Below, piece after piece: positions 8,725 to 10,929 of a DNA stretch of 64,000 bases (the first letter of the stretch is position 1; every line of letters starts with the position of its first letter). The stretch is from Escherichia phage SHEFM2K: sequence record PQ390715.1; one strand, given 5' to 3'. Under the pieces are notes generated by a model, which saw only the letters and a program-made list of their open reading frames with translations, was not told the origin of the DNA and ran no database searches. A program made the position numbers and the translations under genes.

Positions 8725-10929
8725 TTAACTGTTTCTCTCACCTTGAGTGTTTTCAGAGATAGTTCTTAGATAGTTATTTGTCTGTTGCACGGCAGATAGA
8801 GATTGCTCATTAACATCAGCAAGTTTTTTAAGTAACTCTTTCATGTCTTCTGATATTGTGGCATTATTATTAGCATTTGCCATACTACTACCACTATTTA
8901 TCATCGCTTTCATGGCCTCATAATCGTCCGGTTCAGCTTGAATTGGTGGTTCATTTGGACCCCATGCTGATTTATCAAAAGTTTTTGGAGTTATGGTAAC
9001 ATATGGTGCAACATGTTCAGATTTTTCGATTCTCGCAGTTGCTCTTGGCTTATTTTCAAGACCACTACTAATAAGTTTTTCAGCAACTGATTCATCAAGG
9101 GGTTTTGGTTGTTTAAAGTTTCTACTTGAATTCCATTTTAAAAAACCATCAAATGAACTAGAAATATAATCACCAAATGAATTCATTTTTTCTTCAAAAT
9201 AATTATTAACTTTTTCTGCACCATCGGTAACAGAATTGTTTTCTACTTTTACTTTGTCGTCTGATCCACCAAACCAACCTTTAACAGAATCCCAAAGTTT
9301 ACCAGGAAGATCCATTAGGTTATTCATAAAGCTATCAAATGCTTCTGAAACTTTATTATATCCACTACCAAAAATTTCAGTACCTAACCCTTCTAACCAC
9401 TGCTCAAACTCACCACCAATCCTATCCAAATACGCAACTGCATCTTTCGCAATAGGAACCAAACCAAAACCATCAAGTGCTAACTCTCCGATAAATTCCC
9501 ATGCACCATCAGTACGGTCTGCAATATCAGTAAGGTAATCCGCAATAGAATTTTGTGTATCTGCATACATTTTATTAAATGGTTCAGTAAATTCTTTACT
9601 AATCCATCTATTGAATCTATCAGTGAATTGTGTTAGTTTATCTGCTGGTTGACTCTTAGGATCATTAATCGCAGCTTCCATATCAAGTAGTTGTTGGTTG
9701 AAGGTTGCTGCCGTAGTGTTTCCTAATTGTATCTGATTTAATAAATCTTGCTTTATTAGTTCTTTGTTCTTTTTAACAAATTCCAATTGTTGACGGCGAA
9801 TTTCTTGTGAATCAGTAACACCACTACGTACCAAGTTCTCACCTAAATCAGCAAATTGGTTCAGTACTGGAGTCAATAAATCATCTGGTACTCCACCAAT
9901 AGTTAAACGATGTGAAATTAAACGTAGAAAATCTGCACCAGCATCACCCATACTGGCAGCAGCTTCGTTAAATGCTTTTGATGTTGCAACTGCTGCTTTA
10001 CTAGATAATCCAGAATAGTTTTGTAATGCGATTTGCATTGAACGTGTGTCTAATGATTTATCTAAGTTTTGTGTTTTATTTAATAGTGCATCAACTGACT
10101 CACCCATACTTTTACTGAACTTAGTCATACTCATGATAAACTGTTCAGTACTTTTTGCTTGATCCATACTACGTAACATTTCTCTTCCACCAAATTGCTT
10201 TTGGAATTTAATATTACGTGCAGTTAAATCAGTTAATGTTTTTTGAGAAACACCATATAAACCTAATTGATTTTGTGCTTGTTGCACAGTACCCAATAAT
10301 TTACCAAATGTAGAAACACCATCACCATATGCACCATCTAATTGTGCAACAACGGCACTATGAGTTTGTAATGCTTCACCAAATGCATCAATACTCATCA
10401 TTGATGCACCAGCACCTTTTAATATGGAGCCGTAACCTTCAGATAGAGCGACACCAGCACTGTTTATTCTATTATAAACTTCAAGCTGTGCATTTAACAC
10501 ATTATAAACTGCTAAACCAGCGTCAGCAACCAATTTGAATGCAGATGCTGCTGCACCAACTGGACCTGGGATCATTGCTAATGAACCAGCAAATGAAGAT
10601 GCACTCATTCCTAGTGAGTTTACAACATTGCTAACGTTTGCAGACGTACTCATCATAGTTTTGCCGACATTCGATACTTCAGATGATAATGATTTGAATA
10701 TTTTTCCAAATTCTTTACCATCATCAGCTTTGTTATTTGTTCGAGAGCCACGGTTTCCAGTACTTGATGAATTACTTCCATTACGTTTTCCACTTTTAGA
10801 ACCGGATTTCTTTCTATCATTTTTTATATTTTCAGCCAATAACTCACGAATAGCACTCAAACTATCGTTGTTATCTTTAGTTTGATTAACCAACTGCTGG
10901 AGTAGGTAATCACTTGTATTTCCAGCCAT
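8725..10929 (-). CDS. Hypothetical 734-aa protein with basic Ser/Gly-rich N-terminus and Ala/Gly-rich hydrophobic segments; tape-measure-like or ejection-protein-like
   Basis: Composition only (KSGSKSGKRNGSNSSSTGNRGSR; SLGMSASSFAGSLAMIPGPVGAAASAF); occupies the slot that in T4 holds tail tube/sheath genes but has no resemblance to them by eye. Confidence 0.3.
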   Translation of the reverse strand: MAGNTSDYLLQQLVNQTKDNNDSLSAIRELLAENIKNDRKKSGSKSGKRNGSNSSSTGNRGSRTNNKADDGKEFGKIFKSLSSEVSNVGKTMMSTSANVSNVVNSLGMSASSFAGSLAMIPGPVGAAASAFKLVADAGLAVYNVLNAQLEVYNRINSAGVALSEGYGSILKGAGASMMSIDAFGEALQTHSAVVAQLDGAYGDGVSTFGKLLGTVQQAQNQLGLYGVSQKTLTDLTARNIKFQKQFGGREMLRSMDQAKSTEQFIMSMTKFSKSMGESVDALLNKTQNLDKSLDTRSMQIALQNYSGLSSKAAVATSKAFNEAAASMGDAGADFLRLISHRLTIGGVPDDLLTPVLNQFADLGENLVRSGVTDSQEIRRQQLEFVKKNKELIKQDLLNQIQLGNTTAATFNQQLLDMEAAINDPKSQPADKLTQFTDRFNRWISKEFTEPFNKMYADTQNSIADYLTDIADRTDGAWEFIGELALDGFGLVPIAKDAVAYLDRIGGEFEQWLEGLGTEIFGSGYNKVSEAFDSFMNNLMDLPGKLWDSVKGWFGGSDDKVKVENNSVTDGAEKVNNYFEEKMNSFGDYISSSFDGFLKWNSSRNFKQPKPLDESVAEKLISSGLENKPRATARIEKSEHVAPYVTITPKTFDKSAWGPNEPPIQAEPDDYEAMKAMINSGSSMANANNNATISEDMKELLKKLADVNEQSLSAVQQTNNYLRTISENTQGERNS

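Follow-up and report, generated by a model that had tools for sequence, protein, structure and literature searches.

A candidate tail tape measure protein encoded between the baseplate hub and portal genes of an Asteriusvirus jumbo coliphage

What does the large gene immediately upstream of the portal gene encode in this phage? In T4, genes 18 (sheath) and 19 (tube) lie directly upstream of gene 20, as an earlier, sequence-only reading of the locus had pointed out. That reading did not recognize the product here as a sheath or tube protein, and we likewise found no such Pfam match. It described a composition reminiscent of tape-measure proteins or ejected inner-body proteins and settled on an internal head protein that enters the cell together with the DNA. 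We analyzed the gene in the window (the whole stretch of 64,000 nucleotides) and in its relatives, and we think it likely that it encodes the tail tape measure protein (TMP), the functional counterpart of T4 gp29.

The gene, its neighbors and its product in virions

The gene is an ATG-to-TAA open reading frame of 734 codons on the minus strand, with its stop codon within positions 8725-10929; the plus-strand frame across the same positions is riddled with stops. The 734-aa product of the sequence-only reading is therefore real, and its strand, which had been left unstated, is minus. The product has a molecular weight of 79,715 Da (79.7 kDa) and a pI of 5.1. The phage is an Asteriusvirus jumbo coliphage: the window is 100% identical to phAPEC6 and UB, and the protein is 100% identical to its counterparts in phage UB, phAPEC6 and SP27. 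It matches phrog_14121 over its full length, and its molecular weight of 79.715 kDa agrees with that listed for gp231c in the virion proteome of phAPEC6. The gene and its immediate surroundings are as follows.

8725..10929, minus strand: coding sequence, 734 aa plus stop, candidate tail tape measure protein (phAPEC6 gp231c = 121Q gp597 = phrog_14121)
6974..8713, minus strand: portal gene, probably co-transcribed (PF07230, E 5e-112)
11060..11896, plus strand: divergent gp26-like baseplate hub gene (PF12322 T4_baseplate, E 3e-24; phrog_150, baseplate hub)
10962..10969, minus strand: CATAAATA, possible late promoter (weak evidence) that agrees with the T4-type TATAAATA at 7 of 8 positions and lies 32 nt 5' of the ATG

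The gene is flanked by a hub gene on one side and head genes on the other. The portal gene begins 11 nt past the stop codon of the 734-aa ORF, no terminator-like site was found between the two, and from the portal gene onward the head module has the T4-like order 20-67-68-21-22-23. Exact copies of TATAAATA are found 5' of late neighbors, namely the gp26-like gene (11018-11025, plus strand), the scaffold gene (5060-5067, minus strand) and the MCP gene (3851-3858, minus strand); motifs of this type were overall no more common than expected by chance. A scan for sigma-70 promoters gave fewer matches than expected by chance, and neither Rfam nor a tRNA scan gave any match in the window.

The arrangement around the hub gene partly resembles that in T4, in which gene 26 is divergent from 51-27-28-29. 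Here, genes 51, 27 and 28 are absent beside the gp26-like gene, and gp48-like and gp5-like genes lie 7-12 kb from the 734-aa ORF; the window also encodes gp27/gp5-like lysozyme spike (18657-23583) and gp48-like hub proteins, as well as gp15-like and gp3-like terminators (42059-43402). The adjacent, divergent hub gene, an arrangement kept in five distant relatives, accords with a TMP gene; the head genes downstream are atypical of one.

The protein is a virion component, based on the published phAPEC6 and CBB proteomes. In phAPEC6, gp231c (79.72 kDa) was detected by mass spectrometry with 1 peptide (1.4% coverage), and the CBB orthologue, CBB_251, with 29 peptides (50% coverage) in the published virion proteome. 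RaK2 gp088 was not detected by mass spectrometry. These peptide counts are non-quantitative and come from whole virions. Absence from virions, which the sequence-only reading had named as evidence against itself, is thus contradicted in two phages.

Composition and parts of the protein

The N terminus is basic, as the sequence-only reading had said, and rich in Ser, Gly and Asn: residues 1-90 have a pI of 9.8 and contain 17% Ser, 13% Asn, 12% Lys and 10% Gly, with a low-complexity stretch, 'NDRKKSGSKSGKRNGSNSSSTGNRGSRTNNK...', at residues 37-75. Residues 91-200 are rich in Ala, Ser, Gly and Val (19% Ala, 11% Gly; GRAVY +0.57). The description of the protein as Ala/Gly-rich holds for this region but not for the whole protein, in which Ala is 1.6-fold and Gly only 1.1-fold as frequent as in 25 other genes of the window. 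Relative to the same genes, the protein is depleted in T, V, I, Y, H and C; Cys is absent altogether, 7.5% of the residues are aromatic, and the composition favors helix. A hydrophobic stretch is present, but the Kyte-Doolittle 19-residue maximum of 1.44 (residues 117-135) does not reach the usual transmembrane cut-off of 1.6. The long helical regions that had been proposed agree with an AlphaFold2 model that contains 25 helices and no strands and has a low pLDDT of 49. Low pLDDT is typical for extended, all-alpha-helical proteins of the tape-measure type.

An alignment of 22 family homologues (alignment A1), 701-743 aa long, together with the model and the composition, divides the protein into the following parts.

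10813..10917, minus strand: conserved N-terminal helix, residues ~5-39, 'SDYLLQQ..ND.LSA.RELLA' (helix 6-39 in the model)
10705..10821, minus strand: basic Ser/Gly/Asn/Lys low-complexity linker, residues ~37-75 (composition; non-helical in the model)
10450..10659, minus strand: Ala/Gly/Ser-rich hydrophobic helical hairpin, residues ~91-160, with the turn 'IPGPVG' (helices 99-118 and 123-157 in the model)
9640..10662, minus strand: conserved core module, residues ~90-430 (common to same-position distant relatives and TMP-containing proteins)
9085..9582, minus strand: aromatic-rich amphipathic helical region, residues ~450-615 (resembles the canonical TMP repeat region)
8860..9084, minus strand: variable, indel-rich, Pro-containing segment, residues ~616-690 (mostly non-helical and of low confidence in the model)
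8728..8850, minus strand: conserved C-terminal helix and motif, residues ~694-734, '..QQ.NNYLRTISENTQGERNS' (alignment of homologues)

Conserved ends flank a variable, indel-rich stretch (residues ~560-690), as judged from the alignment and from distant relatives. In the N-terminal helix, Q11, Q12, D22, L24, R28 and L31 are invariant among the 22 homologues, down to 34% identity, and distant relatives have a comparable acidic, Leu-rich helix followed by a Gly/Ser linker. The linker at residues ~37-75 varies in length and is rich in Gly, Ser and Asn in all homologues. The C-terminal segment includes 'LRTISENTQGERNS' and the invariant residues Q716, R722, I724, N727, T728 and R732; the motif '[IV]-[AS]-[EN]-N-T' near the C terminus recurs in distant relatives of 676-1036 aa. 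Conserved motifs at both ends would suit docking. The least conserved and most gapped stretch of the alignment is at residues ~616-690.

Conservation extends into the hydrophobic hairpin, with conserved positions S105, A130, F131, Y142, N146, Q148, L149, Y152 and G159. The core module is the best-modelled region (pLDDT 60-86 over residues 150-420). Farther toward the C terminus, profile positions ~450-690 align to repeated segments of bona fide TMPs, and hydrophobic periodicity of 3.6-3.67 is elevated over residues 481-600.

Similarity to tape measure proteins

The family is significantly similar to TMPs. A profile of the 22 members, searched against a library of 1.84 billion proteins, matched P0100, P0114, P0125, P0127, P0131, P0167, P0169 and P0172 with E values of 1.6e-11 to 8e-8. 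According to PHROGs, all eight of these proteins are TMPs (best TMP-family E 3e-10 to 4e-103). The same profile scored 35 bits on the TMP of Streptococcus phage Javan454, which is encoded at the canonical siphophage TMP position. Real TMP targets scored 35-60 bits, compared to at most 4.4 bits when they were shuffled within 40-aa windows. Because shuffled TMPs lose the signal, the similarity depends on residue order and not merely on composition. The matched region is helical and repetitive, with high HMMER bias terms, and convergent helical periodicity could account for part of the similarity, though the shuffling control speaks against composition as the whole cause. The 11-residue aromatic periodicity typical of TMPs is weak here, 0.08-0.12 compared to 0.30 in Javan454.

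Distant relatives at the same gene position contain TMP regions. Most of the 573 profile hits align to the core module, and 59 of 60 distant hits matched phrog_14121. In P0084, P0095 and P0118, the core module is fused to canonical TMP regions, and these three proteins match many PHROGs annotated 'tail length tape measure'. Five relatives, P0084 (976 aa), P0095 (877 aa), P0079 (965 aa), P0100 (1036 aa) and P0056 (834 aa), are each encoded next to a T4_baseplate (gp26-like) gene (loci L004, L006, L015, L016 and L017). The Portal_T4 gene is directly next in three of the five loci, and the next gene is cut by the contig end in the other two. In a tblastn search, P0084 matched 267 phage records, and each of the 40 hits listed was on a gene that at least one record calls TMP; in one GenBank entry the gene is labelled 'membrane protein P6'. 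A Foldseek search of BFVD with the model (pLDDT 49) returned family members first and then named matches, weak ones, that were almost all TMPs or minor tail proteins.

The 734-aa protein by itself had no match in Pfam; in PHROGs, with E up to 10, it matched its own family alone and no TMP PHROG. A sequence-profile search of the PDB gave designed helical bundles only, none significant, and Foldseek gave no PDB match at E below 1. Among 60 distant relatives, Pfam found no TMP domain, and a VanY domain was the only informative match. Homology to a known enzyme, which would have spoken against the sequence-only reading, was not seen for the 734-aa protein: neither an enzyme nor a known fold was matched in Pfam, PHROGs or the PDB.

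Orthologues in Rak2-like phages have been called TMP-like before, by the RaK2 authors and in several GenBank records. RaK2 gp088, CBB_251, GAP32_244, 121Q gp597 and phAPEC6 gp231c belong to the same family over their full length (33-100% identity), are ~700-745 aa long, are encoded between a gp26-like hub gene and the portal gene, and do not differ in kind from the protein described here. Their labels vary by record: hypothetical, structural, TMP, pb2-like and, in one case, an erroneous 'major capsid protein'. RaK2 ORF088 was placed among the tail genes with the note 'similar to ... tail tape measure protein', the vB_Ec-M-J record has 'tail length tape measure protein', those of pEa_SNUABM_12 and pEa_SNUABM_47 have 'putative tape measure protein', and the fEgEco12 orthologue is labelled 'pore-forming tail tip protein; pb2'. 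We found no solved tail structure and no explicit TMP assignment in the literature on this phage group.

The protein shares features with several well-known TMPs. T4 gp29, also from a myophage of the T4 superfamily, likewise lacks Cys, favors helix, has few aromatic residues and contains an internal hydrophobic segment; relative to the divergent gene 26, its gene (in 51-27-28-29) lies on the side where the 734-aa ORF is found here, and the lengths of both proteins are compatible with a tail of ~100 nm. Homology to gp29 was not detected (hhalign probability 8%, phmmer E 0.76), gp29 has 590 aa rather than 734, and its gene is followed by 48 and 54 rather than the portal gene. In T4, genes 51, 27 and 28 lie between 26 and 29, whereas no gp51, gp27 or gp28 gene intervenes here. 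The TMPs of siphophages (Javan454, Bacillus phage BMBtp15; PHROGs 58, 167, 1272, 1535 and 4200) are all-helical like the 734-aa protein, and their repeat region is matched by the family profile, with P0084, P0095, P0100 and P0118 as intermediates that join the two. In contrast to siphophage TMPs, the 734-aa protein lacks a lytic domain, its gene is not preceded by a frameshifted chaperone pair, and the tail is contractile.

Weighing the alternatives

We looked for other genes that might encode the TMP. When TMP-type queries were compared to 111 ORFs of at least 250 aa from the phAPEC6/121Q genome, the 734-aa ORF was the only significant match (P0084, E 2e-12; P0100, E 6e-6). This screen covers ~343 kb; the ~10 kb outside it are 129-138.5 kb, which was seen via the 121Q locus only, and 345-352.6 kb. 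Other large proteins were considered individually. The 749-aa virion protein encoded at 18657-20906 has an aromatic-rich, mixed composition with Cys and no TMP match, phAPEC6 gp158c and gp323c are rich in beta structure and aromatic residues, contain Cys and have no TMP match, and gp162c has an HExxH motif, Cys and no TMP match. The large virion protein gp240 is also rich in beta structure and aromatic residues and contains Cys.

The length of the protein is compatible with the tail. As a helix, 734 aa at 0.15 nm per residue would span 110 nm. The phAPEC6 tail has a 94-nm contractile section plus a baseplate, the CBB tail is about 101-123 nm (123 nm including collar and baseplate) with a 722-aa orthologue, and the RaK2 tail is 128 nm with a 720-aa orthologue. 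Among the phages with measured tails, the candidate TMPs are 720-734 aa long, too narrow a spread to show proportionality. This comparison leaves out the 'gp701 TMP' of Agrobacterium phage Atu_ph07, whose GenBank record carries hardly any annotation there.

Four other readings compete with a TMP. The internal head protein favored by the sequence-only reading seems to us quite improbable; it would be an inner-body component or ejection protein packaged in the capsid, perhaps in the inner body of 91 x 18 nm, and would enter the cell along with the DNA. Its gene would be in a suitable place, on the same strand as and directly upstream of the portal gene and head module with no terminator found, and phAPEC6 and 121Q do possess an inner body, the composition of which is unassigned in the literature. 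The protein is present in virions, and its basic low-complexity N-terminal region could bind DNA. Like the inner-body proteins of phiKZ and the internal proteins IPI-III and Alt of T4, it would be an ejected virion protein, and its gene adjoins head genes. This support is circumstantial, however. Unlike those proteins, the family has no conserved L/I-x-E prohead-protease site or targeting sequence: the sole N-terminal LxE is LAE at residues 31-33, and in 15 of the 22 homologues its Glu is replaced by Asp. Abundance in virions appears very low or undetectable in two phages (one peptide in phAPEC6, none in RaK2), unlike that of a bulk inner-body component, yet 29 peptides were found in CBB. The phAPEC6 paper reports that none of that phage's proteins is similar to the inner-body proteins of phiKZ. 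What the family does have is significant similarity to canonical TMPs, same-position relatives that hold TMP regions, and a baseplate hub gene as its conserved neighbor. It is very unlikely, in our view, that a TMP-like protein forms the axial core or ruler of the 91-nm inner body along the portal axis (phAPEC6, 121Q) and is expelled through the tail without residing in it, or without residing only in it. If true, that arrangement would explain why the gene keeps its place, and is likely co-transcribed with the portal gene, throughout a broad clade of T4-related jumbo phages.

The remaining two readings concern what a TMP-like protein does and whether the similarity is meaningful. The protein might be TMP-like, sit in the tail lumen or hub and, on ejection, form a channel across the envelope like T5 pb2, with tail length set by another factor; we consider this unlikely. 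The pb2 label given by the fEgEco12 annotators and the conserved Ala/Gly-rich hydrophobic hairpin speak for a channel, and the evidence for a ruler function is purely arithmetic. T5 pb2 has a hydrophobic helical segment, as does the protein here, for which the dual role of ruler and ejected channel-former is proposed. On the other hand, there is no second TMP-like ORF in ~343 kb, the aligned homologues are tightly grouped at 701-743 aa, searches by sequence and fold (Pfam, PDB) returned neither a match to pb2 nor its C-terminal metallopeptidase motif or domain, and, unlike in pore-formers of the pb2 type, the 19-residue hydropathy maximum is below the transmembrane threshold. To our knowledge, the lumen protein of characterized long-tailed phages is also the ruler, as one molecule (lambda gpH, T4 gp29, T5 pb2), and this too counts against a channel-former with no ruler function. 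Finally, we give very little credence to some other helical structural or assembly protein (scaffold, neck or decoration) whose similarity to TMPs is convergent, coiled-coil-like periodicity. The matches do lie in repetitive, high-bias helical regions, the model is of low confidence, and the PHROG label is merely 'virion structural protein'. Against this, the signal was gone in the shuffling control, distant relatives at the same position have extensive canonical TMP matches, gp22-like and gp68-like genes are already assigned as head scaffold, and the conserved terminal motifs fit docking.

Based on the profile similarity to TMPs, the TMP-containing relatives at the same position, the adjacent hub gene, the conserved termini with a variable middle, a helix of ~110 nm compared to the tail, and the lack of a rival ORF in ~343 kb, we favor the tail TMP. 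The resemblance to tape-measure proteins noted in the sequence-only reading is borne out by the first three of these. We further infer a copy number, a location in the tube lumen, length setting, binding partners for the termini, ejection and membrane insertion, as follows. A few copies, probably a trimer, would form an extended, mostly alpha-helical bundle. The C-terminal segment (residues ~694-734) would anchor it in the central hub (gp26-like, gp27/gp5-like lysozyme spike and gp48-like proteins), and the tail tube would polymerize around the bundle and halt at the conserved N-terminal helix, which may dock to the tail-terminator end, fixing the tail at ~25 sheath rings. Upon sheath contraction, the protein would be expelled ahead of the DNA, and the Ala/Gly-rich hairpin (residues ~91-160) may enter the inner membrane and aid in forming a conduit for DNA.

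Assignment as a TMP would leave the understanding of tails unchanged and would leave one candidate fewer for the inner-body proteins. In jumbo phages of the 121Q/phAPEC6 type, it would assign a role to a conserved virion protein elsewhere called 'hypothetical' or 'structural', and would fill the missing tape measure slot in the model of their tail. It would also define a divergent TMP family, without a Pfam model and labelled only 'virion structural protein' in PHROGs, that is fixed between the gp26-like hub and portal genes in many T4-related jumbo phages. As candidate docking sites, the conserved motifs at the two ends could help in fitting the protein into cryo-EM maps.

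The open reading frame and its family

The interval 8725-10929 (-) is a single open reading frame (ORF) of 734 codons, from ATG to TAA, and the plus strand over this interval has many stop codons. The product (79,715 Da, pI 5.1) has a basic N-terminus (residues 1-90, pI 9.8) in which residues 37-75 are of low complexity (Ser/Gly/Asn/Lys), in agreement with the sequence-only reading of a basic, Ser/Gly/Asn-rich N-terminus. That reading had also called the protein Ala/Gly-rich. This was true of residues 91-200, which are hydrophobic and rich in Ala, Ser, Gly and Val (19% Ala, GRAVY +0.57), but not of the whole protein. 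Compared to 25 other genes in the window, the protein was enriched 1.6-fold in Ala but only 1.1-fold in Gly, and was depleted in T, V, I, Y, H and C. As a whole it is thus helical and rich in Ala, and the Ala/Gly-rich label fits only part of the sequence. The highest 19-residue hydropathy window in residues 91-200 was 1.44, below the usual transmembrane threshold of 1.6. AlphaFold2, using an alignment of 22 sequences, predicted 25 helices and no beta strands (mean pLDDT 49, with 60-86 only at residues ~150-420), consistent with the long helical regions proposed earlier.

The protein is a virion protein of known phages. The window DNA shares 100% identity with Escherichia phages UB, phAPEC6 and SP27 and 99.6% with 121Q, all of them Asteriusvirus, 'Rak2-like' jumbo myophages of ~350 kb. 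The ORF protein is gp231c of phAPEC6 and gp597 of 121Q (labelled 'structural protein'), and over its full length it matched its own phage protein family (PHROG), phrog_14121 ('virion structural protein'). It matched no Pfam family, no PDB chain by sequence profile and no solved fold, and thus no known enzyme in these searches. The phAPEC6 virion proteome contains gp231c (79.72 kDa), identified by one peptide (PMC7247149), and in the CBB virion proteome 29 peptides covered 50% of the orthologue CBB_251 (PMC5259590). Proteomics did not detect RaK2 gp088, a predicted structural protein, possibly owing to low abundance according to the authors (PMC3622015). A 99%-identical orthologue in phage vB_EcoM_CRJP21 (OQ708376.1, 195547-197751) is labelled 'major capsid protein', which is wrong, as another gene encodes the gp23-type capsid protein.

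We found 40 close homologues and aligned 22 (701-743 aa, identity down to 33%). Conservation was strongest in an N-terminal helix ('SDYLLQQ..ND.LSA.RELLA'), a hydrophobic hairpin, the core to about residue 430, and the last ~40 residues ('NYLRTISENTQGERNS'); residues ~560-690 were variable and full of indels. In distant relatives, too, a Gly/Ser linker comes after an acidic, Leu-rich N-terminal helix, and an '[IV]-[AS]-[EN]-N-T' motif is kept near the C-terminus. The family's 'I-S-E-N-T-x4-N' (8728-8850 (-)) loosely resembles 'I-K-K-N-T-x3-N' in the C-terminal region of T4 gp29 (L003:6879-8651), which stands ~25 residues before the end of gp29. No alignment method supported this likeness, and it may be due to chance.

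Gene neighborhood

The ORF lies between a gp26-like baseplate hub gene and the T4-type head genes:

11060-11896, upstream of the ORF and divergent: gp26-like baseplate hub gene (PF12322)
directly downstream of the ORF (-): portal gene (PF07230)
after the portal gene (-): 75-aa gene, position of T4 gene 67
after the 75-aa gene (-): 286-aa structural gene, position of T4 gene 68
after the 286-aa gene (-): prohead protease gene, gp21-type
after the prohead protease gene (-): scaffold gene, position of T4 gene 22
after the scaffold gene (-): capsid gene, gp23-type

The portal gene begins 11 nt after the ORF on the same (-) strand, with no terminator-like site between the two, and the genes from portal to capsid keep the T4 order. 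A sequence that agrees with the T4 late promoter at 7 of 8 positions (CATAAATA) lies 32 nt before the ATG, and neighboring late genes are preceded by exact TATAAATA sites. The earlier remark that T4 has tail genes upstream of the portal gene was right, since T4 genes 18 and 19 are upstream of gene 20. In T4, genes 51-27-28-29, of which gene 29 encodes the tape measure, are transcribed divergently from gene 26, and the ORF therefore occupies the hub/tape-measure side of gene 26.

Two other features are nearby. A 332-aa ORF (1492-2490 (-)) that comes just after the major capsid gene has a T5orf172/GIY-YIG-type endonuclease domain (PF10544, phrog_681). At the corresponding spot, the related phage fEgEco12 lacks a gene of this size, which suggests a mobile homing-endonuclease insertion. 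About 840 bp (12106-12944) have no ORF of at least 46 aa and no Rfam or tRNA match. This region is flanked by a strong terminator-like hairpin (12115-12136, after the gp26-like operon) and an endonuclease VII gene, and may contain regulatory elements or an RNA missing from the annotation.

Similarity to tape measure proteins

The family profile matched tape measure proteins (TMPs). We compared the profile of the 22 sequences to 1.84 billion representative proteins and obtained 573 matches at E <= 1e-3. One group, of 847-2863 aa, aligned in several stretches each to profile positions ~450-690. All eight that we checked (P0100, P0114, P0125, P0127, P0131, P0167, P0169 and P0172; E 1.6e-11 to 8e-8) were TMPs by PHROGs, with the best TMP-family E-value per protein ranging from 3e-10 to 4e-103. 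The profile scored 52-60 bits on four library TMPs and 35 bits on the TMP of Streptococcus phage Javan454, whose gene is in the textbook position, with tail-protein genes on one side and distal tail genes on the other. Shuffling each target TMP 100 times within 40-residue windows gave scores of at most 4.4 bits, indicating that the similarity depends on residue order and not composition. These matches support a tape-measure protein, one of the two kinds to which the sequence-only reading had likened the composition. The TMP-like region of the ORF is repetitive with high bias terms, and its 11-residue aromatic periodicity was weak (0.08-0.12) compared to the clear signal in Javan454 (0.30). The ORF protein alone matched no TMP model, and no homology to T4 gp29 was found. 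Named matches of the low-confidence structural model in a viral structure library were almost all TMPs or minor tail proteins, with weak E-values.

The second group, of about 600-1200 aa, aligned to profile positions ~30-430, and 59 of 60 of these proteins matched phrog_14121. P0084 (976 aa), P0095 (877 aa) and P0118 (938 aa) also matched many 'tail length tape measure' PHROGs. By tblastn, P0084 matched 267 phage records (best E 1e-8), and each of the 40 matches listed was to a gene that one or more records call a TMP. In all five distant relatives with recoverable contigs (P0084, P0095, P0100, P0079 and P0056; 834-1036 aa), the gene adjoins a T4_baseplate (gp26-like) gene, and the downstream gene was Portal_T4 in all three loci that were complete there. 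Based on the PHROG matches and the shared position, we conclude that in other T4-related jumbo phages the product of the gene at this place has unmistakable TMP regions, together with an N-terminal module in common with the ORF protein. The contig of one distant metagenomic relative has two tandem T4_baseplate genes (L015:246-2198 (-)) beside the 1036-aa TMP-like gene, and the other relatives have one.

We believe that the ORF probably encodes a divergent TMP. The sequence-only reading had favored an internal head protein injected with the DNA, a reasonable idea beforehand given the inner body (91 x 18 nm) of phAPEC6 and 121Q and the adjoining portal gene; that the downstream neighbors are head genes is a weakness of the TMP assignment. 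However, the positive evidence favors a TMP, the sole N-terminal LxE motif is not conserved, the protein was barely detectable in two proteomes (phAPEC6 and RaK2), and the phAPEC6 authors reported no similarity to phiKZ inner-body proteins. An internal head protein is thus very unlikely. The TMP label for orthologues is already known: the RaK2 authors placed ORF088 among tail genes in 2013 and noted its similarity to a TMP (PMC3622015), and in GenBank the vB_Ec-M-J orthologue (79% identical) is annotated as 'tail length tape measure protein', those of pEa_SNUABM_12 and pEa_SNUABM_47 as 'putative tape measure protein' and that of fEgEco12 as 'pore-forming tail tip protein; pb2'.

Tail length, other candidates and proposed function

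TMPs usually correspond to ~0.15 nm of tail per residue. As a continuous helix, 734 residues would span 110 nm. The contractile section of phAPEC6 is 94 nm (25 rings), not counting the baseplate; the CBB tail (722-aa orthologue) is 123 nm, of which the collar takes up 7.4 nm and the baseplate 14.7 nm (PMC5259590), and that of RaK2 (720-aa orthologue) is 128 nm (PMC3622015). These lengths agree with ~0.15 nm per residue over a range too narrow to establish proportionality.

We looked for other candidates among large virion proteins. Four were rejected: gp240 (749 aa, encoded in the window), gp158c, gp323c and gp162c all have Cys and matched no TMP PHROG; the first three are beta/aromatic-rich and gp162c has an HExxH motif. 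Outside the window, gp162c (L009:12235-13806 (-), 523 aa) has 'HEAQH' within its first 200 residues and may be a virion-borne zinc metalloprotease. In a phmmer screen of 111 ORFs (at least 250 aa; about 343 kb of the phAPEC6/121Q genome) with eleven TMP-type queries, the ORF was the sole significant match (P0084, E 2e-12; P0100, E 6e-6), and the T4 gp29 query matched nothing.

By analogy to lambda gpH, T4 gp29 and T5 pb2, the protein would form an extended-helix trimer with its conserved C-terminus anchored in a hub that would comprise the gp26-like protein, the 749-aa and 887-aa gp27/gp5-like proteins (18657-23583) and the gp48-like protein (17510-18331). The tube and then the sheath would polymerize along the trimer, and the conserved N-terminal helix would be the stop mark for terminator proteins (gp15-like, 42059-43402). 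On contraction, the protein would exit the tube before the DNA, and the Ala/Gly-rich hairpin, judging from its sequence, may then enter the cytoplasmic membrane.

The tail and baseplate region has three other features. Right after the 887-aa gp5-like hub/lysozyme gene (20920-23583 (+)), a stand-alone 162-aa ORF (23620-24108 (+)) matches the C-terminal lysozyme domain of phrog_13211, the family of the 887-aa protein (positions 727-885, E 2e-63), and appears to be a paralogue of the spike lysozyme domain that stands free of the spike. A single 3333-aa ORF (28132-38133 (+)), right after the gp6-like wedge gene in the baseplate module, appears from its size and position to be phAPEC6 gp245 (381.9 kDa), a virion protein by mass spectrometry (PMC7247149). 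A 769-aa ATPase with two AAA+ domains, of the ClpA/ClpB type (38170-40479 (-); phrog_4871, 'ATP-dependent protease'), is encoded mid-block on the opposite strand.

Our analysis adds to the existing TMP label statistically controlled evidence, a screen of the phAPEC6/121Q genome that found no second candidate, the conserved terminal motifs of the family, and a gp26 / TMP / portal arrangement that is kept over a wider clade.
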